A stretch of 64,000 nucleotides of DNA, from NCBI GenBank assembly GCA_963710415.1, contig CAVQAH010000024.1, positions 150,234-214,233 on the forward strand, given 5' to 3'. Shown here in pieces: positions 2,592 through 64,000 of the stretch (its first letter is position 1; the number at the start of each line of letters is the position of its first letter). Source of the stretch: an uncultured Acidobacteriota bacterium. GTDB taxonomy: Bacteria; Acidobacteriota; Vicinamibacteria; Vicinamibacterales; 2-12-FULL-66-21. The translations under genes and the position numbers were made by a program. The notes under the pieces are model-generated. The model did not search any database and had not been told where the DNA came from. It worked only from the letters and a program-made list of their open reading frames with translations.

Positions 2592-2612
2592 CGCTGTCGA
2601 GTTCACGCTTAG

Positions 2613-2650
2613 GGGCCGGCTGCCACTGGTGGCCGGCCTTTTCTGTTTGT
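2613..2650 (+). terminator. Rho-independent terminator after the OmpA-family gene
   Basis: 'GGCCGGCTGCCA-CTGG-TGGCCGGCC' stem-loop followed by 'TTTTCTGTTTGT', about 20 nt after the stop. Confidence 0.7.
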
Positions 2651-2712
2651 CGGGCCGACGCTGTCAGCATGTTTTCGTGCTCGCGGGGGCTGCAGGCGCT
2701 TTTCCGATTTCC

Positions 2713-2803
2713 GTGCTCGCGGGGCCCCACCCCCGCTCGCTTCTCGCTCGGCGGCGCGGCTTCGCCGCGCTGCCCTCCGGCGCCTCGCTCAGGCCGCAGG
2801 CGC
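2713..2803. repeat. ~90-nt GC-rich dispersed intergenic element, copy 1
   Basis: 'GTGCTCGCGGGGCCCCACCCCCGCTCGC...CCGCAGGCGCT' is about 80% identical to 36596..36687. The central hairpin is GCGCGGC-TTC-GCCGCGC. Confidence 0.8.
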
Positions 2804-2804
2804 T

Positions 2805-2839
2805 TTTCCGATTTCCGATTTCCGATTTCCGATTTCCGA
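2805..2839. repeat. Tandem heptamer array TTCCGAT x5
   Basis: Five perfect TTCCGAT units read directly. A partial copy 'TTTCCGATTTCCG' lies at about 2701-2713. The same unit family occurs at 25411-25455 and 59831-59965. Confidence 0.9.
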
Positions 2840-2863
2840 TTACACTGACTTCCACCACTCGGC

Positions 2864-25410: not shown

Positions 25411-25455
25411 CCCGATTCCGCTTTCCAATTCCCGCCATCCGATTTCCGCTTTCCC
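25411..25455. repeat. Degenerate heptamer array (TCCGATT/TCCGCTT type)
   Basis: 'GCCCGAT TCCGCTT TCCAATT CCCGCCA TCCGATT TCCGCTT TCCC'. Same unit family as 2805-2839 and 59831-59965. Confidence 0.75.
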
Positions 25456-36595: not shown

Positions 36596-36687
36596 GTGCT
36601 CGCGGGGCCCCAGCCCCGCTCGCTCTCGCTCGGCGGCCGGCCTGCGGCCGGCTTCACTCCGTCGCCTCGCTCGGAGCCGCAGGCGCT
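36596..36687. repeat. ~90-nt GC-rich dispersed intergenic element, copy 2
   Basis: Aligns to 2713..2803. The central hairpin here is GCCGGCC-TGC-GGCCGGC, a different sequence with the same structure. It is followed by 'CGAGCAC', the inverse of its 5' 'GTGCTCG'. Confidence 0.8.
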
Positions 36688-42026: not shown

Positions 42027-42039
42027 GAATCCAGCTTAC

Positions 42040-42217
42040 ACGTGTTTACTGCGGACGTGTGCAGTGCCACGTGCTGCCGTGGTCCGTGGTCGCGTGCGTC
42101 CGTGTCTGCCGTGCGATCTGCAGCACGCGCGAACATAACCGTGACAGCAGTATCGATGCGAGACACGTAGCACGTGACGAAGCAGCACGGACTACGGAGG
42201 ACGTCCGCACGTGCACG
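42040..42217. repeat. ACGTGC-type heptamer array forming a long imperfect inverted repeat
   Basis: The arms are 'CTGCGGACGTGTGCAGTGCCACGTGCTGCCGTGGTCCGTGG...' and '...CACGGACTACGGAGGACGTCCGCACGTGCACG'. Same unit family as 61801-61967 and 63955-64000. Confidence 0.7.
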
Positions 42218-42764
42218 TTACTGCAGCACGGTCCCTCCGCCTGACGGATCCATCTCCCCCTCGGTTGGCGGAGATGCCGTCCGGCCTGAAGAACAGCACG
42301 TACTTGTTCGTCGTGGCGAACGCCCTGTGGCCGGACCGCCCAATCGACAGCGGAGCGGCGGTCAGGTAATAGCCCATGCGCGTCTGCGATCCGTGGCAGT
42401 CGAATGGCCCGAGCACGGCGCTGCCGGCGTCGAGCGTGATTGTGTAGCCGCTCTTCGTCGACGGGTCCACCGCGAGGTCGGGCGAGATGAATCCGACGGA
42501 TCCGCCGGGGCATGCGGTGGCGAGCACCGACAACTGCACCGCGTATCCTCCGGTCGTGGCCGACGCCGCAAACGCGGCTTCGGCGCTGTTCACCGCGCGC
42601 AGCGTTCCGATGGCGGAGGACTCGTTGCCCGCCATGCGTGCCCGCAGCAGCATCGGCAGCGCCATGGCCGAGACGATTCCGATGATCGCCACCGCTGCCA
42701 GAAGTTCTATCAGTGAAAATCCGCGCGCGCCGTTCGAACGCGCTCGCGCAGCACGCCCCGCCAT
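42192..42764 (-). CDS. Type IV pilin paralog 2 (3' end probably mis-framed; likely true stop near 42218)
   Basis: ORF 42192..42764 has 'ARGFSLIELLAAVAIIGIVSAMALPMLLRARMAGNESSAIGTLRAVNSAEAAF'. An alternative frame ends '...SGGGTVLQ*', parallel to '...ETGGTPLQ*' in the pilA alternative frame. Confidence 0.8.
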   Translation of the reverse strand: MAGRAARARSNGARGFSLIELLAAVAIIGIVSAMALPMLLRARMAGNESSAIGTLRAVNSAEAAFAASATTGGYAVQLSVLATACPGGSVGFISPDLAVDPSTKSGYTITLDAGSAVLGPFDCHGSQTRMGYYLTAAPLSIGRSGHRAFATTNKYVLFFRPDGISANRGGDGSVRRRDRAAVTCTCGRPP

Positions 42765-51271: not shown

Positions 51272-51368
51272 AGGGCTGAGCTAATGGAATCGGGAGGGGT
51301 GATGGATTGATTGCAGAATCGTAAAGAACCATGTCGGGTGGAAGTTGGCAGTTGGGATTTGACAAGGA

Positions 51369-55946: not shown

Positions 55947-57179
55947 ATGGCGTTCGATACGTTGCGCGCCAACAAGCTGCGCTCCGCGCTGACGATTCTC
56001 GGCGTGGTGATCGGCGTGACGTCGATCGTCGCGATGACCTCCCTCATCCGCGGTTTCGGGGATCAGATGTACCAGCTGATCCGGCAGATGGGCTCCGACA
56101 CGGTTTACCTGCAGAAGTTCGGCATGGGCAGCTTTGCGAGCGGACGCAGTTTTCTCGACGTACTGAAGCGCCCCAACCTGTCCGAGGAGGACGCCAAAGC
56201 GATCGTGAAGGGGGCGCCGTCGGTGTCGATGGTGGGGCTGCAGCTTGGTGGCGGCCCGGGATCCCAACCCCAGCGCATGACCTATGGCAACCAGTCCACC
56301 AAGCAAATGATGGTCATGGGCGCGAGCGCGAACTTCGCCGATACGAACTATATCGCTCTGGAGAACGGCCGGTTCTTCAGCGACTACGAGGTCTCGCATC
56401 GTCGGGCCGTCGTCGTGCTCGGCTATGCGCCGGCCTCGACGCTGTTTCCCAATCTCGATCCGATCGGCAAGCGCGTCCGGATCGGCTCGACGGAGTTCAC
56501 CGTCGTCGGCACCTTGGGCAAGCGGCCGAGCCCGCTCGGCAATCCCGACGAGTTCGCGGTCATTCCCCTGACGACTTACGAGAAGCTTTTCCGGTCGCCG
56601 GTGATTCGCGGCATCCTGACACGGTTCCTGACGATCACGGTCGTACCCCGAGCGGGCGTGCCGAGCGACCAGGTCATTCGCGAGATCGAGGATGTGATGC
56701 GCAGCCGCCATCGGCTGCGGCTCGACGAAGAAAACGACTTCGACATGTTGACGTCCGACGCGGTGATGAAGATCGTCGATCAGCTCACCCAGGCCGTCGC
56801 GCTGGCGCTCGTCGTGATCTCGTCCATCGCGTTGCTGGTCGGCGGCATCGGCGTCATGGCGATCATGACCATTTCCGTGACCGAGCGTACGCGCGAGATC
56901 GGCATCCGCAAGGCGATTGGCGCGCGCCGCCGTGAAATCCTGGTCCAGTTTCTCCTCGAGGCAGTCTTCCTGACGTCGGTGGGGGGGCTGCTCGGCATCC
57001 TGCTCGGGAGCGGAATCGGCCTCGTCGTCAACCAGCTCGCCAACTTCCCCGTGTCGTTGCCGTTGTGGTCGTTCGCGCTGGGCTTCGCGTTCTCGGCGAC
57101 GGTCGGCATTTTCTTCGGCATGTATCCCGCGGTCCGCGCCTCCCGGCTCGACCCGATCGAGGCGCTGCGGTACGAATAG
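55947..57179 (+). CDS. MacB/FtsX-type ABC permease (no ATPase domain), intact
   Basis: ORF 55947..57179 (410 aa) with 'MAFDTLRANKLRSALTILGVVIGVTSIVAMTSL' and 'VTERTREIGIRKAIGARRREI'. Confidence 0.85.
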   Translation: MAFDTLRANKLRSALTILGVVIGVTSIVAMTSLIRGFGDQMYQLIRQMGSDTVYLQKFGMGSFASGRSFLDVLKRPNLSEEDAKAIVKGAPSVSMVGLQLGGGPGSQPQRMTYGNQSTKQMMVMGASANFADTNYIALENGRFFSDYEVSHRRAVVVLGYAPASTLFPNLDPIGKRVRIGSTEFTVVGTLGKRPSPLGNPDEFAVIPLTTYEKLFRSPVIRGILTRFLTITVVPRAGVPSDQVIREIEDVMRSRHRLRLDEENDFDMLTSDAVMKIVDQLTQAVALALVVISSIALLVGGIGVMAIMTISVTERTREIGIRKAIGARRREILVQFLLEAVFLTSVGGLLGILLGSGIGLVVNQLANFPVSLPLWSFALGFAFSATVGIFFGMYPAVRASRLDPIEALRYE

Positions 57180-57184
57180 AGCGG

Positions 57185-57233
57185 CCAGCTGCCAGCTACC
57201 AGCTGCCAGCTGCCAGCTACCAGCTACCAGCTA
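57185..57233. repeat. Heptamer array CCAGCT(G/A) x7 (left flank of four-helix-bundle gene)
   Basis: 'CCAGCTG CCAGCTA CCAGCTG CCAGCTG CCAGCTA CCAGCTA CCAGCTA' read directly. Confidence 0.9.
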
Positions 57234-57302
57234 CATGTTGAGTTCCCTCCTACCTGAGCATCAAGATTGCAGGCTGCGGCGCGTCTCATTCAGGAGGACG
57301 CG

Positions 57303-57658
57303 ATGAAAGACTACCGCAAGCTCGTGGTGTGGCAGAAAGCGCACATGCTCACGCTGCAGACGTACGAACTTTCTCCGCACTTACAGAAACCCGAAGCGTG
57401 GCCTCTGCGCGATCAGCTGTTGCGAGCAGCGATCTCGATTCCCTCCAACATCGCTGAAGGCGCCGGCCGCGGCACCGATCCAGACTTTCGTAGATTTCTA
57501 TGGCATTCCTTGGGTTCGTCGAACGAACTTGAGTATGATCTCCTTCTTGCCCGAGACCTCCGGTTCCTGCAGGGTGACATTGCATTGCCGGCTCACCGGC
57601 GCAGCTGGAGGAGGTCCGGCGGATGCTCACGGGCCTCGTACAGTCGTTGAACTCGTGA
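57303..57658 (+). CDS. Four-helix-bundle protein (23S rRNA intervening-sequence protein / Avd-like family, PF05635-type), one frame break
   Basis: ORF 57267..57650, from the Met at 57303. It reads 'MKDYRKLVVWQKAHMLTLQTYELS...LRDQLLRAAISIPSNIAEGAGRGTDPDFRRFLWHSLGSSNELEYDLLLARDL'. A family-typical C-terminus 'AQLEEVRRMLTGLVQSLNS*' is in another frame, with a break near 57590. Confidence 0.75.
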
Positions 57659-57673
57659 TAACGCCGAGTCGCC

Positions 57674-57722
57674 GGCAGCTGGCCGCTGGCAGCTGGCGAC
57701 TGGCAGCTGGATGCTGGCAGCT
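57674..57722. repeat. Heptamer array GGCAGCT-type x7 (right flank, inverted relative to the left flank)
   Basis: 'GGCAGCT GGCCGCT GGCAGCT GGCGACT GGCAGCT GGATGCT GGCAGCT'. It contains 'GGCAGCTGG', the reverse complement of 'CCAGCTGCC' in the left array. Confidence 0.9.
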
Positions 57723-57740
57723 GACGCGGAGGTTGCCCTT

Positions 57741-59828
57741 ATGAAGGTCTATGACGCTCAAACATTGAGAAATGTGGCGCTCGTCGGTCATTCGGGCGCC
57801 GGCAAGACGCAGCTCCTTTCGGCGCTGCTCTTCGACGCCGGCGCTGTCAACCGTCTGGGTCGGGTCGACGATGGCTCGAGCGTGACCGACTACGACGAAG
57901 AAGAAATCGCCCGCAAACACACCCTCTCGTCCAGCCTCGCCTACGCTGAATGGAACAAGAACAAGATCAATTTCATCGACACGCCGGGAATGGCGAACTT
58001 CCTGAGCGAAGCGCGCGCGACGCTGCGCGTGGTGGATACCGCTCTGGTCGTCGTCGACGCCGTGTCCGGCGTTCAGGTATCGACCGAAAAGGTGTGGGCT
58101 ATTGCCGATGAGCTCGAGGTGCCCCGGCTCGTCGTGCTCAACCGCGTGGATCGCGAGCGCGCCAGCCTCGATCGGTCTCTGGATTCACTGCGCACGGTGT
58201 TCGGTCGCGCCGTCGTGCCGATTCAGCTGCCCATCGGTGAAGAGAAGTCGTTCCGTGGAGTCGTCGATCTCGTGGCCATGAAGGCCTATACATTCGCCAC
58301 CGACGGCAGCGGCAAGCCGACCGAAGGAGCGATTCCCGCCGAGCTCGAGTCGCGCCGCCAAGACCGCCCGTGAGGCGCTCATCGAAATGGTCGCGGAAGC
58401 CGACGATTCGCTCATGGAGAAGTTTTTCGAGGCCGGCACGCTCACGCAGGACGAGCTGGTCGGCGGGCTCAAGCGCGGGCTTCAGCGCCGCGCGGGTTTT
58501 CCCCCTCGTCTGCACGTCAGGCATCACGAATGTCGGCATCCAGCCGCTGCTCGACGCCATCGTCACCTACGTGCCTTCACCGGCCGAACGGCCGTTCAAG
58601 GTGGACGATGCGACGATCGCGAGCACGGACAATGGGTCGAGCGCAGCGTTCGTCTGGAAGACGGTGGCTGACCCCTTCGCCGGCCGCATCACGATGTTCC
58701 GCGTCGTCTCGGGAACGATCAAGGCCGACTCGACGCTGCACAACGTGACCAGGGACGTCAGCGAGCGCCTTGGCCATGTCGTGCTGCTCCAGGGCAAGAC
58801 GCAGAGCAACGTCCCCGAGATCAAGGCGGGCGATGTCGGCGCGGTCGCCAAGCTGAAGGAAACGCAGACGAGCGACTTGCTGGCTGACAAGGGCGTCAAA
58901 TTCAAGATCTCGCCGATCAAGTTCCCCGAACCGGTCATTTCGTACGCGATCGAGCCGAAGAGCCGGGCCGACGAGGAAAAGATCAGCACGTCTTTGCACC
59001 GGTCTGCAGGAAGAGGATCCGAGCATCAGCTACAACCGCGACGCGCAGACGAAGGAACTGCTGCTGGCCGGTCAGGGGCAGTCGCACATCGAAGTCACCG
59101 TCGCCAAGCTGAAGCGGCGCTTCGGGGTCGAAGTGAACCTGAAGCTTCCGCGCATTCCCTACCGCGAAACGATCACCGCGGCAACCGAAGCGCACGGGCG
59201 TCACAAGAAGCAGACCGGCGGCCACGGGCAGTTCGGCGACTGCAAGGTGAAGTTCGAGCCGCTGCCGCGCGGCGCCGACTTCGAGTTCGTGGACGACATC
59301 TTCGGCGGGTCGATCCCGCGTCAGTACATACCTGCCGTCGAGAAAGGTCTGCAGGACGCGCGACTGCGCGGTTTCCTCGCCGGCTTCCCGATGGTGGATT
59401 TCCGCGCGACGGTGTTCGACGGCTCGTTCCACCCGGTCGATTCGAACGAGCTTTCGTTCAAGATGGCCGCGTCCCTGGCGTTCAAGGACGGCATGTCCCG
59501 CGCGCGCCCGACGCTGCTCGAACCGGTGATGGACGTCGAGGTGTACGCGCCGAGCGATTTCGCGGGTGATTTGATGGGCGACCTGAACAGCCGCCGCGGA
59601 CGCATCGGAGGAATGGATACGCGCGGCGTTTCGACGATCATCCGCGCGAAGGTGCCGATGTCCGAGATGCTGACCTACGAACAGCACCTCACGTCAGCCA
59701 CTGGCGGCCGCGGCTCGTATCACATGGAGTTTTCGCACTACGAAGAGGTGCCGTCACACCTGCACAGCAAGATCATCGCAGCGTCGAAGGCTGAGCGTGG
59801 AGGACACGAGGCGGCTGAGGAGTCCTGA
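57741..59828 (+). CDS. Elongation factor G family GTPase (EF-G paralog type), three frame breaks
   Basis: The Met at 57741 opens '[31 protein letters not shown]...[12 protein letters not shown]...VLNRVDRE' in ORF 57711..58373. The middle is in ORFs 58387.. and 58370... Domains IV-V are in ORF 59133..59828 ('[17 protein letters not shown]...[15 protein letters not shown]'). Breaks are near 58350, 58480 and 59000. Confidence 0.85.
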
Positions 59829-59830
59829 GA

Positions 59831-59965
59831 ATCGGAAATCGGACATCGGAAATCGGAAATCGGAAATCGGACATCGGACATCGGACATGGAATCCGATTG
59901 TTCGACACTGAGTCGCCCGATTGTCGACTATCCGATGTCCGATGTCCGATGTCCGATTTCCGATT
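59831..59965. repeat. Large heptamer palindrome (ATCGGAA/ATCGGAC x8 opposite TCCGATG/TCCGATT x5)
   Basis: The left arm is 'ATCGGAA ATCGGAC ATCGGAA ATCGGAA ATCGGAA ATCGGAC ATCGGAC ATCGGAC'. A ~44-nt centre separates it from the right arm 'TCCGATG TCCGATG TCCGATG TCCGATT TCCGATT'. It lies between the convergent EF-G gene and rplQ. Confidence 0.9.
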
Positions 59966-60593
59966 AAGAGCCGCCGGCTTTACGTGGCGATGACGTCTTG
60001 GCGCCTTTGCCGCGGGTATCGGCACGGCCACCCTTGACGCGCTCCCGGTCCGGCTTGGCTTTGCGGGTCGTTTCCTCGCCAGTCTCGCCTTCCGCGTCGG
60101 CTTTCTTGCCGCGCAGCCGTTCCGCAGCGGCGCGCAGGCGTCCGCCCACACCCTTGGCCTTCGGCTTCGCTGCCGCCTCGGACTTCTCGGTCTCGGCGTT
60201 GGGATTGAACTCGCTGCCGACGAGCTCGATCTGTGCGACTTCCGCGCTGTCGCCGCGGCGGTAACCAATCCGCAGAATACGGGTGTAGCCGCCAGGCCGC
60301 CCCTCGAAGCGGGGCGCGAGCGTGTCGAAGAGCTTCGCCACGACGTCGCGGTCCTGCAGGTCGCGAAGCACGAGCCGCCGCGCGTGCAGTGTCTTGCCGT
60401 TCTCGCCGCCGCCGGCAATGCCACGTTTGGCGATGGTGATGATCCGCTCCACGAACGGACGCAGCTCTTTTGCGCGCGGAACCGTCGTTTCGAGGTGCTC
60501 GTATCGGAGCAGCTCCTGCGCCTGGTTCCGGAGCATCGCGATACGATGATTCGTCACGCGCCCGAGCTTACGATGGCCTACTCTGTGTCTCAT
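59964..60593 (-). CDS. rplQ: 50S ribosomal protein L17 with ~85-aa Lys/Ala/Glu-rich C-terminal extension
   Basis: ORF 59964..60593 (209 aa). It reads 'MRHRVGHRKLGRVTNHRIAMLRNQAQELLRYEHLETTVPRAKELRPFVERIIT'. Confidence 0.95.
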   Translation of the reverse strand: MRHRVGHRKLGRVTNHRIAMLRNQAQELLRYEHLETTVPRAKELRPFVERIITIAKRGIAGGGENGKTLHARRLVLRDLQDRDVVAKLFDTLAPRFEGRPGGYTRILRIGYRRGDSAEVAQIELVGSEFNPNAETEKSEAAAKPKAKGVGGRLRAAAERLRGKKADAEGETGEETTRKAKPDRERVKGGRADTRGKGAKTSSPRKAGGS

Positions 60594-60614
60594 TGCCGTG
60601 ATCCTTGTTGCTTG

Positions 60615-60699
60615 CCGGGGACTCGCGCTCGGATCCGTCGTCGGGTGGCTCGGCGCGACGGACTTCGAGCACCGAGTCCCGAGCCCCGAGTCCCGGCAC
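60615..60699. repeat. Inverted heptamer element (CCGAGTC type) in the rpoA-rplQ spacer
   Basis: 'CCGGGGACTCGCGCTCGG' (60615-32) is complementary to 'CCGAGTC CCGAGCC CCGAGTC CCGG' (60672-95). Confidence 0.7.
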
Positions 60700-60707
60700 G
60701 ATCTAGT

Positions 60708-61754: not shown

Positions 61755-61800
61755 TCCCCGCCTCCCGCCGCAGGTCTGGGATGGCTGCGGGCGAGGAGCT

Positions 61801-61967
61801 AGCTACTGACGTGCTTACGTGCGACGCTGCTGCACGTGCTACGTGCCACTCCATGCCGATTGTGACGTGCTTACATGCGACATGCGCACGTGCCGTGACA
61901 CGGCAATGGCACGTGACAGGCAGCACGTGCGCACCGTGAGCACGTCCGCACGTAAGCACGTGACACT
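61801..61967. repeat. ACGTGC-type heptamer array in the rpsD-rpoA spacer
   Basis: About 165 nt of units such as 'GACGTGC TTACGTG ... GCACGTG CTACGTG CCAC ... GGCACGT GACAGGC AGCACGT GCGCACC GTGAGCA CGTCCGC ACGTAAG CACGTGA'. The region is self-complementary because it is ACGT/CACGTG-rich. Confidence 0.75.
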
Positions 61968-62597
61968 TCACTTGCTATACAACTCCACAATCAGCTGTTC
62001 CTGCACGGGCAGGTTGATCTGCTCGCGTGTGGGCAACGACTGAATCCGTCCGGTCATGTTGCCGGCGTCGAACTGCAGCCAGTCCGGGATGCCGCGTCCT
62101 TTGACCTCTTCGATCGCGTGCTGGATCGCCGTGTTCTGGGCGCTCGTGCCGCGGACCGTGATCACGTCACCTGCCTTCACCGAGTAGGAGGGCACGTCGA
62201 CCTTGCGCCCGTTGACCAGGAAGTGCCCGTGGCGAACGAGCTGGCGCGCCTGCGGACGCGAGGTGGACAGGCCGAGGCGGTAGATGACGTTGTCGAGCCG
62301 TCGCTCGAGCAGCTGCAGCAGCGTCTCGCCGGTGATCCCGCGGGTGCGGTCGGCCATCTCGAAGTAGCGCCGGAACTGGTTCTCCAGCACGCCATAGATG
62401 CGCTTGACCTTCTGCTTCTCGCGGAGCTGCAGCCCGTAGCCCACGAGCTTCGCCTTGCGCAGCTTGCCATGCTGCCCCGGCGGCAGGTTGCGCTTCTCGA
62501 TGGCGCACTTCTCCGTGTAGCAGCGCTCTCCCTTCAGAAAGAGCTTCATCCCTTCGCGCCGGCAGAGCCGGCAGACCGCTCCGATGTAACGTGCCAT
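61968..62597 (-). CDS. rpsD: 30S ribosomal protein S4
   Basis: ORF 61968..62597 (209 aa) with '[36 protein letters not shown]'. Confidence 0.95.
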
Positions 62598-62618: not shown

Positions 62619-62696
62619 GCAAGCTCCAGCTCTCAGCTTCAGCCCCTCGACGTCACTGCGCTCACCGCCCGACCTGAAGCTGGCAGCTGGAGCTGC
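62619..62696. repeat. ~23-bp-stem hairpin of CAGCT-type heptamers in the rpsK-rpsD spacer
   Basis: 'GCAAGCTCCAGCTCTCAGCTTCAG' and 'CTGAAGCTGGCAGCTGGAGCTGC' pair at about 21 of 24 positions, with a 31-nt loop. Confidence 0.8.
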
Positions 62697-63540: not shown

Positions 63541-63613
63541 CCTTGTAGTCGTGAGTCGACTAGTCGTCAGTCAGTCGACTGACTGTCGACTGCCGACTGC
63601 CGACTCCCGACTG
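63541..63613. repeat. Inverted heptamer element (GACTGNC type) in the rpmJ-rpsM spacer
   Basis: The left arm is 'GTAGTCG TGAGTCG ACTAGTC GTCAGTC AGTC'. The right arm is 'GACTGTC GACTGCC GACTGCC GACTCCC GACTGTC'. Confidence 0.8.
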
Positions 63614-63727
63614 TCATCCCTGTCTCTGCTTGTGCTTCTGATTCGGGCAGATCACCCGCACCACGCCGCGGCGGCGGACGATCTTGCACTTGTCACAAAT
63701 TCGTTTGACCGATGCTCTGACCTTCAT
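63614..63727 (-). CDS. rpmJ: 50S ribosomal protein L36
   Basis: Not in the ORF track because it is too short. My own minus-strand translation gives '[37 protein letters not shown]' (37 aa). Confidence 0.9.
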
Positions 63728-63954: not shown

Positions 63955-64000
63955 AACTACGCGCTGCCGCACGTCGCACGTGGCACGTCGGCACGTCGCA
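63955..64000. repeat. GCACGTC-type heptamer array upstream of infA (runs off the window)
   Basis: 'GCACGTC GCACGTG GCACGTC GGCACGTC GCA' read directly. Confidence 0.7.

Follow-up and report, generated by a model that had tools for sequence, protein, structure and literature searches.

In the 64,000-nucleotide (nt) stretch analyzed here (the window), part of contig CAVQAH010000024.1 of an uncultured Acidobacteriota bacterium, arrays of the tandem heptamer TTCCGAT recur at distant loci. On balance, we consider that these arrays probably belong to a system of intergenic, transcribed heptamers found throughout the lineage, in which the array would be the stem module of elements that resemble the intervening sequences (IVSs) of rRNA genes and that sit in mRNA spacers. 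Under this explanation, the arrays would take three forms: inverted pairs with a short loop, giving 20- to 60-bp stems between cistrons or at the 3' ends of genes (59830-59965); inverted pairs around a PF05635 gene, with the architecture of a 23S IVS transferred to an mRNA spacer (57180-57723); and solo arrays in 5' leaders (2804-2841). The initial annotation had noticed the dispersed units; what it overlooked is that most arrays are inverted pairs forming long hairpins in transcribed operon spacers. The window has a G+C content of 62-67%, and its nearest relatives are metagenome-assembled genomes (MAGs) of Vicinamibacterales (Acidobacteriota), the closest of which, MFD02840.bin.2.141, shares ~90% DNA identity with it. 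Comparison loci from relatives and other phyla carry L-numbers (L001, L004, L180, etc.). The features representing the three forms are listed below.

59830-59893, plus strand: left arm of an inverted pair, AATCGGA/CATCGGA x8-9, the reverse complement of TTCCGAT; begins 2 nt past the EF-G stop
59922-59965, plus strand: right arm of the same pair, TCCGATG/TCCGATT x5-6; overlapping the rplQ stop (rplQ at 59964-60593, minus strand)
57180-57234, plus strand: 5' arm of a cassette, CCAGCTG/CCAGCTA x7; 1 nt past the stop of a MacB/FtsX-type permease gene (55947-57179)
57303-57655, plus strand: PF05635 gene (23S_rRNA_IVP, four-helix-bundle [4HB], Avd-like; E = 2e-27), with AGGAGG 8 nt upstream
57668-57723, plus strand: 3' cassette arm, GGCAGCT/GGCCGCT-type x7, reverse-complementary to the 5' arm
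2804-2841, plus strand: solo array (TTTCCGA)x5.3, perfect and without an inverted partner; 22 nt before the ATG (2864) of a HEAT-repeat gene

The heptamer TTCCGAT is found at 18 positions in the window, compared to 9.5 ± 3.1 after shuffling, and none of 100 shuffles reached 18. The five units seen earlier at 2805-2839 were recovered by Tandem Repeats Finder (TRF) as TTTCCGA x5.3 at 2805-2841 with 100% matches. What had been described as an ATCGGAA/TCCGAT palindrome at 59831-59965 is an inverted heptamer pair whose arms are 86-97% complementary, with TRF copy numbers of 8 and 4.9 (59830-59964). This hairpin (59830-59965) sits between the convergent EF-G-like and rplQ genes and folds at -76.3 kcal/mol on the plus strand and -83.6 kcal/mol on the minus strand (z of -7.7 and -10.3, respectively). 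We rejected its reading as an intrinsic terminator, as there is no T-run (U-run) on either side. After the EF-G stop, L180 has only 'AATCGGAAATCGAC', comprising two AATCGGA units, compared to 8-9 units plus a partner in the window; the TTCCGAT array at this site is therefore ancestral and has since expanded or contracted. Synteny with close relatives breaks exactly at this TTCCGAT/AATCGGA site, after rplQ in L001 (8447-8766 versus window 59829-59963) and after EF-G in L180 (12554-12700 versus window 59829-59900). The degenerate units reported at a third locus are real but fall well short of the TTCCGAT and CAGCTG arrays (period 7, 62% matches, TRF score of 36).

25411-25455, strand unassigned: degenerate TTCCGNT-like array in the spacer between two minus-strand open reading frames (ORFs); z of -1.7

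The second form is best seen in a different unit. CAGCTG-type units had been placed at 57185-57722 and 62619-62696, and they are present at both; the former, however, is not one 540-nt array but two inverted arrays flanking an ORF. The two arms of this cassette are inverted, 55 nt long and 80% complementary, and the arm-arm stem appears in both the minimum-free-energy and the centroid structure of the 566-nt fold (z of -4.4). The cassette is inserted between the MacB/FtsX permease and EF-G genes and not in 23S rRNA helix 9, 25, or 45; its 3' arm ends 5 nt before a GGAGG (57728), with the ATG of the EF-G-like gene at 57741. A search of Rfam returned no family anywhere in the window, including no rRNA match. 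The enclosed gene matches PF05635 only, with no Y1/HUH transposase domain, and its nearest solved structure is XCC0516 of Xanthomonas campestris (PDB 2GSC; E = 1e-13). Exact-protein look-ups for the window's 4HB protein, for P0001 and for the HEAT-repeat protein found no matches, and no duplication was found at the cassette borders when they were set against L004. The ORF has 115-119 codons, the last 20 of which (57596-57655) lie in another frame, likely through an indel error near 57596-57614. The EF-G-like gene (57741-59828) is likewise spread over three frames (ORFs 57711-58373, 58370-59569, and 59133-59828), and its L180 ortholog is intact at 694 amino acids. Both sets of frameshifts have the look of indel errors from long reads and not of pseudogenes. 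They suggest a long-read assembly, so that array copy numbers in the window may be off by a unit.

Array arms enclose PF05635 genes far beyond chance, from rRNA IVSs to mRNA spacers. Among 83 homologous genes (80 on soil-metagenome contigs, plus those of the window, L005, and L012), period-7 arrays bracket 63 (76%), and most of the others are cut by contig ends. Random 350-nt segments of acidobacterial loci are bracketed by arrays in 0.9% of cases, an 84-fold enrichment. The arms are inverted, not direct, in 56 of the 63 bracketed loci, and, once reverse-complemented, the right unit of a locus fits the left unit of that locus better than do the right units of other loci (0 of 10,000 permutations). 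Orthologous cassettes at the same site carry their own units in matching arms: CCAGCTR in the window, GCTTCCR in L005, and TTTGCCG in L012. About 55 cassettes lie at the macB-EF-G site, some of them flipped, and ~17 lie elsewhere. The window, L005, and 55 metagenome contigs carry a CCAGCTT cassette in the macB-EF-G spacer, L018 a TTCAAAG hairpin, and L017 a 9-mer hairpin; L004, L008, and L014 have nothing there. The 4HB protein is under purifying selection, with a median dN/dS of 0.15. Short 4HB-bearing metagenome contigs often end within ~100 nt of the gene, inside or beside arrays (L085, L091, L094, L097, L105, L111, L116, L126, L130, and L137), and the arrays thus appear to break short-read assemblies.

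The association reaches other phyla. In X. campestris, X. sacchari, and Pseudoxanthomonas, the XCC0516 orthologues are placed between accB and accC and have GGGAATC GGGAGTG GAGAATC GGGAATC and its reverse complement as flanks. Plasmid 4HB genes with flanking arrays of 7 or 8 nt occur in Anabaena, Nostoc, Trichormus, Picosynechococcus, Pseudanabaena, and Gemmatirosa (Gemmatimonadota). All seven heptamer arrays found in 50 kb of sequence from Anabaena plasmid pANA02 adjoin the 4HB gene, and the avd gene of the diversity-generating retroelement (DGR) on the same plasmid has none; arrays also cluster around the 4HB gene in Pseudanabaena and N. punctiforme. In Azospirillum lipoferum, the PF05635 match lies inside the 23S rRNA gene (Rfam LSU positions 877-1655) and is a true IVS, with stem arms made of GGACAGA/GGACGGA repeats; the unit GGACAGA (L178) resembles the Coxiella IVS unit GACAGAT. 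Several 4HB genes with arrays lie within operons of CRISPR-cas systems, as cas6-4HB-cas4 twice and cas10-4HB-cmr3 once (L171/L183 on Pseudanabaena pPg_01, L179/L181 on Anabaena pANA02, and L176 in Picosynechococcus), and the Pseudanabaena cas4 gene is itself bracketed by inverted arrays with the unit of the neighboring 4HB gene. In the open-access literature, we found no paper linking PF05635 genes with genome-wide heptamer arrays, the nearest being a note on the Coxiella IVS. Heptamer arrays, described before in Xanthomonas, Nostoc, Beggiatoaceae, and the Coxiella IVS, and S23p IVSs are themselves already known; what is new here is the recognition of heptamer arrays as stem arms around a PF05635 gene, which links two long-unexplained genome features.

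Heptamer arrays form a distinct and fast-evolving class of spacer, and their unit sequences, or flavors, evolve in concert within a genome. When arrays were called in the window at 17 of 21 matches, period 7 yielded seven (327 nt in all), each of the other periods from 4 to 12 yielded 0-1, and shuffles yielded ~0; all seven strict period-7 arrays lie in spacers, outside likely coding regions. Across an Acidobacteriota set made of the window and 80 loci around rpoA (81 loci, 1.48 Mb), the counts for periods 5, 6, 7, 8, 9, and 10 were 1, 17, 283, 55, 19, and 2. Octamers replace heptamers in some genomes (L008), and units of 8 (or 9) nt in the same architecture were seen in L008, L069, L177 (Gemmatirosa), L176 (Picosynechococcus), and L017; the period is therefore lineage specific and not fixed at 7.

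The initial annotation had argued that a few unit flavors are dispersed along the DNA rather than being mere products of local slippage, and this is borne out when genomes are compared. Counting array pairs >400 nt apart within a genome and allowing ≤1 mismatch in any rotation or on either strand, 28% share a unit within genomes versus 7% between them (0 of 1,000 label permutations). The prospect that a census would find essentially random units without families was put to the 81 Acidobacteriota loci, where the flavors survived, this genome being represented by its 64 kb only. Dominant units are genome specific (GCTTCCR in L005, TTGCAGA in L006, ACTTTGA in L018, and GGGTAATT/GATTGCAG in L008), and orthologous spacers of sister genomes hold different units; at the site of window 51330-51360 (GGAAGTT GGCAGTT), for example, a CGTAGCT/CCGTGGT hairpin stands in L004 and L180. 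L001 matches the window at 98-99% identity in coding DNA but at 67-71% in three array spacers, which keep the flavor. The purine-rich arm is the 3' one, nearest the downstream start codon, in 25 of 32 hairpins in ribosomal-protein operons (L004-L083; P = 0.002). Solo arrays in these operons are purine rich on the sense strand in 82 cases versus 45, and many stand just before start codons. The orientation of the hairpin arms with respect to transcription favors a constraint acting on RNA. Across phyla, acidobacterial YCAGYTN resembles TCAGTTA, the reverse complement of the TAACTGA unit of Beggiatoa and cyanobacteria, and L075 has a TAACTGA-like unit.

We propose that arrays grow, shrink, and turn over through replication slippage, as the differences in copy number and unit between near-identical relatives indirectly show. 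The two arms of a pair would be kept complementary: covariation is seen at the level of the unit, and slippage combined with arm-to-arm correction could maintain it. Copying from locus to locus and/or a factor specific to the genome could homogenize flavor across it, a putative process behind an observed pattern. Within this explanation, the recurrence of TTCCGAT far apart reflects its being one of the genome's current flavors rather than independent local slippage. In polycistronic RNA, paired arms would form long double-stranded stems that RNase III might cut as it does in rRNA IVSs, and such cutting would separate neighboring cistrons or free the 4HB cistron, leaving the flanking genes intact. 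The putative relation of the TTCCGAT arrays to the cassettes rests on shared architecture and not on shown descent.

Several observations weigh against this explanation. RNase III processing of array stems is inferred by analogy with IVSs only. The solo array at 2805-2841 is predicted to be single stranded and unstructured (folding z of +0.63), so that it cannot function as a stem. Flavor sharing within the window alone is weak, with one exact match among ~10 locus pairs where ~0.1 is expected. In the Acidobacteriota loci, only three 4HB genes accompany 283 arrays in ~1.5 Mb. TCCGATTTCCGAT was absent from the 163 loci searched, nor did any 4HB gene turn up with arms of TTCCGAT units. A six-frame hidden Markov model search of 21 hairpin loops of ≥90 nt recovered only the two genes already known; as the loops hold no 4HB remnants, we rejected the idea that ORF-less pairs are recently decayed cassettes. 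The Pseudanabaena arrays directly beside the 4HB gene are in direct, not inverted, orientation. Finally, the excess of heptamers has a simpler published account in a polymerase slippage bias (Mrazek 2007, as cited in PMC4679880 and PMC4692102).

One alternative would extend the proposed explanation, and we regard it as possible though rather unlikely: the 4HB protein could be a trans-acting partner of its flavor, binding the 7-nt units, whether in RNA or in single-stranded DNA, and promoting their maintenance, expansion, or spread, in the manner of the tyrosine transposases (RAYTs) associated with repetitive extragenic palindromes (REPs) and their hairpin-forming REP doublets (REPINs). The 4HB gene would then sit between arrays of its own flavor, and many ORF-less arrays would depend on its protein. 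The homologue Avd acts in an RNA-protein complex. Avd is also needed, together with a reverse transcriptase, for DGR retrohoming (PMC10053308), and, like RAYT genes between REPs (PMC2817692), the 4HB gene is flanked by inverted copies of a dispersed repeat. Distant sites without an ORF repeat the flavor of the arms (window 62619-62696, at least 13 arrays in L005, and position 1368 of L012), and the GGGAATC at the flanks of XCC0516 is the unit of 186 genome-wide arrays (PMC4692102). The clustering of arrays around plasmid 4HB genes and the purifying selection on the protein point in the same direction. Set against these are the window flavors TTCCGAT, ACGTGC, and GACTCGG, which have no 4HB gene in 64 kb, the array-filled ribosomal-protein operons of many genomes with no 4HB gene within 20 kb, and the confounding of flavor-protein covariation by vertical descent. 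To our knowledge, moreover, stand-alone PF05635 proteins have no known nucleic-acid-binding or catalytic activity, which counts against such a partnership. We speculate, with more doubt than confidence, that PF05635 proteins and heptamer arrays together constitute one widespread and unrecognized class of element, in which the protein is a flavor-specific partner (compare RAYT and REPIN), the rRNA IVS is a special case lodged in 23S, and the heptamer excess of bacterial genomes (short tandemly repeated repetitive [STRR] sequences, GGGAATC, and TAACTGA) is its footprint.

The remaining alternatives leave PF05635 out. Arrays might be neutral by-products of slippage alone, promoted by a 7-nt polymerase footprint, functionless and tolerated in spacers alone, with shared units due to chance, composition, or descent. 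Heptanucleotide repeats are the most abundant long class of simple sequence repeat (SSR) in many bacteria, for which slippage has been proposed (as cited in PMC4679880 and PMC4692102); copy number does change between near-identical relatives, and coding DNA is free of arrays, which is what a period not divisible by 3 would lead one to expect. Slippage alone leaves unexplained the inverted pairing with matched arms, the 84-fold enrichment at one gene family in five phyla, the confinement of unit sharing to single genomes, with orthologous sites differing in their units, and the strand polarity relative to transcription, and we consider this account unlikely. Less probable still, in our view, is that arrays are RNA or DNA tracts bound by proteins unrelated to PF05635, such as cold-shock-domain proteins, S1, or a heptad-recognizing transcription factor, that tune the downstream gene, as proposed for TAACTGA repeats. 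Cold-shock-domain proteins accommodate ~7 nt per domain. The idea, discussed for these proteins in PMC4679880, would suit the unstructured solo array 22 nt before a start codon and the many solo arrays just before starts in ribosomal-protein operons, with their purine-rich bias (82 versus 45). It fits poorly with units that differ wholly between sister genomes at one site, given that cold-shock proteins and S1 are conserved and weakly specific, with the sequestration of most arrays in hairpins, and with the lack of any predicted promoter-like site near 2805. An artefact of assembly or sequencing in a long-read MAG is scarcely credible: the frameshifts in EF-G and the 4HB gene, the intact L180 ortholog, and the long-read origin of the nearest MAGs would allow it, but arrays stand at the same sites in independent short-read contigs (JGI, ENA) and also in finished isolate genomes and plasmids.

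Other candidate classes were tried and rejected. Miniature inverted-repeat transposable elements were dismissed as hairpins of the same flavor differ in loops and flanks and as no border duplication was found at the cassette relative to L004. The G-quadruplex reading made for Xanthomonas does not suit TTCCGAT, CAGCTG, and ACGTGC, which have no G-runs. A sponge for CsrA, suggested by the GGA within AUCGGA, is not general, with the TTGCAGA and ACTTTGA flavors lacking GGA. CRISPR arrays have repeats of 24-48 nt and unique spacers; the units here are contiguous 7-mers.

The spacer that carries the solo array is composite. Its interleaved direct repeats and 90-nt element, placed earlier at 2674-2840, are all present with small corrections to their coordinates, and the partial unit noted at ~2701-2713 reads TTTTCCGATTTCCG at 2700-2713.

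2611-2641, plus strand: terminator-like hairpin with a T-run (14-pair stem and T-rich tail), a canonical intrinsic-terminator site
2677-2713, plus strand: mini-copy joining both ends of the 90-nt element (GTGCTCGCGGGG + GCTGCAGGCGC), then two TTCCGAT units (TTTTCCGATTTCCG, 2700-2713)
2714-2803, plus strand: 90-nt dispersed element TGCTCGCGGGGCCCCACCCCC...GCCGCAGGCGC, which adjoins or lies inside the TTCCGAT array and is not a heptamer array

The hairpin terminates the upstream Ig/OmpA-like gene (stop at 2590) and marks the left limit of the spacer. Copies of GTGCTCGCGGGG lie at 2677-2688 and 2713-2724, and copies of GCAGGCGCTTTTCCGATTTCCG lie at 2692-2713 and 2796-2817; the mini-copy itself is 23 nt long (2677-2699) and is directly repeated relative to 2713-2724 and 2796-2817. 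The 90-nt element has a second copy in the window at 36597-36686. It reads TGCTCGCGGGGCCCCA[C/G]CCCCGCTCGC...GCCGCAGGCGC with an internal GC hairpin, is also found at L002 1-80 (reverse strand), and is followed by TTTTCCGATTTCCG in every copy. The motif at its 5' end, TGCTCGCGGGG, also occurs ~20 nt upstream of ribosomal-protein starts in L004, L006, and L009.

Further arrays fill the spacers of the ribosomal-protein genes toward the end of the window. The ACGTGC-type regions listed earlier at 42040-42217, 61801-61967, and 63955-64000 do exist, but their units are irregular (7-9 nt) and the family is far less marked than those of TTCCGAT and CAGCTG.

42040-42217, minus strand: ACGTG-rich imperfect inverted region including CCGTGGT x3.7; a weak case
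60611-60700, minus strand: rpoA-rplQ spacer hairpin of GGGACTC/CCGAGYC units; z of -2.4, with unit and site common to L001 and L002
61803-61967, minus strand: rpsD-rpoA spacer with irregular, inverted ACGTGC-type units; 61800-61970 folds at -93 kcal/mol, z of -5.1
62619-62696, minus strand: rpsK-rpsD spacer hairpin of CAGCT units with 21-nt arms and a loop without an ORF; z of -3.1, in the flavor of the cassette arms
63545-63621, minus strand: rpmJ-rpsM spacer with a CAGTCGG/CAGTCGA array and partner forming a hairpin; z of -4.9
63955-64000, minus strand: CGCACGT-type array upstream of infA, truncated at the window end; a longer array lies at the same site in L001

Folding of 42030-42225 is unremarkable (z of -1.5). 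Each of the alpha-operon spacers rpmJ-rpsM, rpsK-rpsD, rpsD-rpoA, and rpoA-rplQ has an inverted array pair (z of -2.4 to -5.1). Arrays tend to start 0-5 nt past the upstream stop codon and to fill the spacer from there (window 57180 and 59830; L018 8431 and 8982; L006 2955 and 7967; L008 4817, 8495, and 9752). Directly before the rpoA start lies a 48-nt leader, GCTAGCTCCTCGCCCGCAGCCATCCCAGACCTGCGGCGGGAGGCGGGGA (window 61755-61802, minus strand), which is kept in L001 and L003 and slightly changed in L002 and L004 while the adjacent arrays vary; it includes a CCGCAG...CTGCGG hairpin and a ribosome-binding site and may be a regulatory leader. A REP-like palindrome, CGCCCGACCTGAAGGTCGGGC, occurs in ribosomal-protein spacers of the sister genome (L004 9190-9225 and 9885-9905), and part of it lies in the CAGCT hairpin loop of the window (62655-62675).

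Three puzzles, each decades old and pursued separately, meet in these data: the excess of heptamers in bacteria, the nature of rRNA IVSs, and the role of PF05635 outside DGRs. The window holds all three together, and gene and arrays co-occur across five phyla. The gene-array hypothesis is testable in culturable organisms, for instance at accB-XCC0516-accC of Xanthomonas, where the structure of the protein has been solved (PDB 2GSC). In practical terms, arrays appear to break short-read assemblies, and they coincide with breaks in synteny. By inserting long hairpins between its cistrons, they should alter both the processing and the regulation of the alpha ribosomal-protein operon in Acidobacteriota.

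Among known systems, REPs and bacterial interspersed mosaic elements (BIMEs) with their RAYTs share with the arrays the intergenic inverted pairs in operons, the genome specificity, the mRNA hairpins, and a single-copy gene flanked by inverted copies (PMC2817692). REPs, however, are palindromes of 20-40 nt rather than tandem heptamers, and the window gene has no HUH/Y1 domain; we therefore rejected membership of the REP/BIME-RAYT (REPIN) class for 7-nt tandem units around a gene that matches PF05635 only. In X. campestris and X. axonopodis, 186 intergenic GGGAATC arrays, with one dominant unit per genome, were described by Rehm et al. (2015; PMC4692102). Of these, 70-75 are in convergent inverted pairs and most are transcribed; the same spacers are occupied in sister species by arrays of different length and sequence. 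They were read as G-quadruplex formers, with XCC0516 and PF05635 unmentioned (PMC4692102). The window unit GGAAATC is one base away, and L164 has GGGAATC itself. Unlike the Xanthomonas arrays, the window units have no G-runs, several flavors coexist, and the spacers of ribosomal-protein operons are filled.

The cyanobacterial STRR sequences and the TAACTGA repeats of Beggiatoaceae, cyanobacteria, and Bacteroidetes are likewise tandem intergenic heptamers, often just upstream of starts, with a lineage-specific unit and an origin left unexplained (PMC4679880). They are mainly direct repeats, with one indirect set in 170 in BOGUAY (PMC4679880); here, in contrast, inverted pairs occur often and go together with a gene family. 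As in heptanucleotide SSRs of the STRR and GGGAATC type, the arrays described here comprise at least three tandem units, are intergenic, reuse their units, and vary in length and sequence at the same site. The heptamer SSR in the 5' untranslated region of hmw1A in Haemophilus influenzae, whose leader effect runs through RNA structure and RNase III (PMC12721329), is similar as a heptanucleotide SSR in a transcribed leader. It is a single contingency locus of a pathogen's surface adhesin, in contrast to genome-wide arrays in housekeeping operons. With regard to phase variation, the array at 2805 precedes a HEAT-repeat gene with no promoter-like site predicted nearby, and the other arrays lie in ribosomal-protein and housekeeping operons.

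The rRNA IVS provides the architectural comparison on which the proposed explanation draws. In the 23S IVSs of Coxiella and Leptospira, an S23p/PF05635 ORF lies in the loop of a stem formed by terminal inverted repeats, and the Coxiella IVS has a variable number (2-3) of GACAGAT heptamers before the S23p ORF, with a stem that is cut by RNase III and an ORF reported to be decaying (PMC4990558). Unlike an rRNA IVS, the window cassette lies between macB-like and EF-G genes, its arms are 55-nt arrays, and its ORF is under purifying selection; the TTCCGAT arrays differ further in having no ORF. Like the S23p IVS, the window cassette is a PF05635 ORF within terminal inverted repeats that close a stem, and in the IVS of Azospirillum these arms, too, are heptamer repeats.

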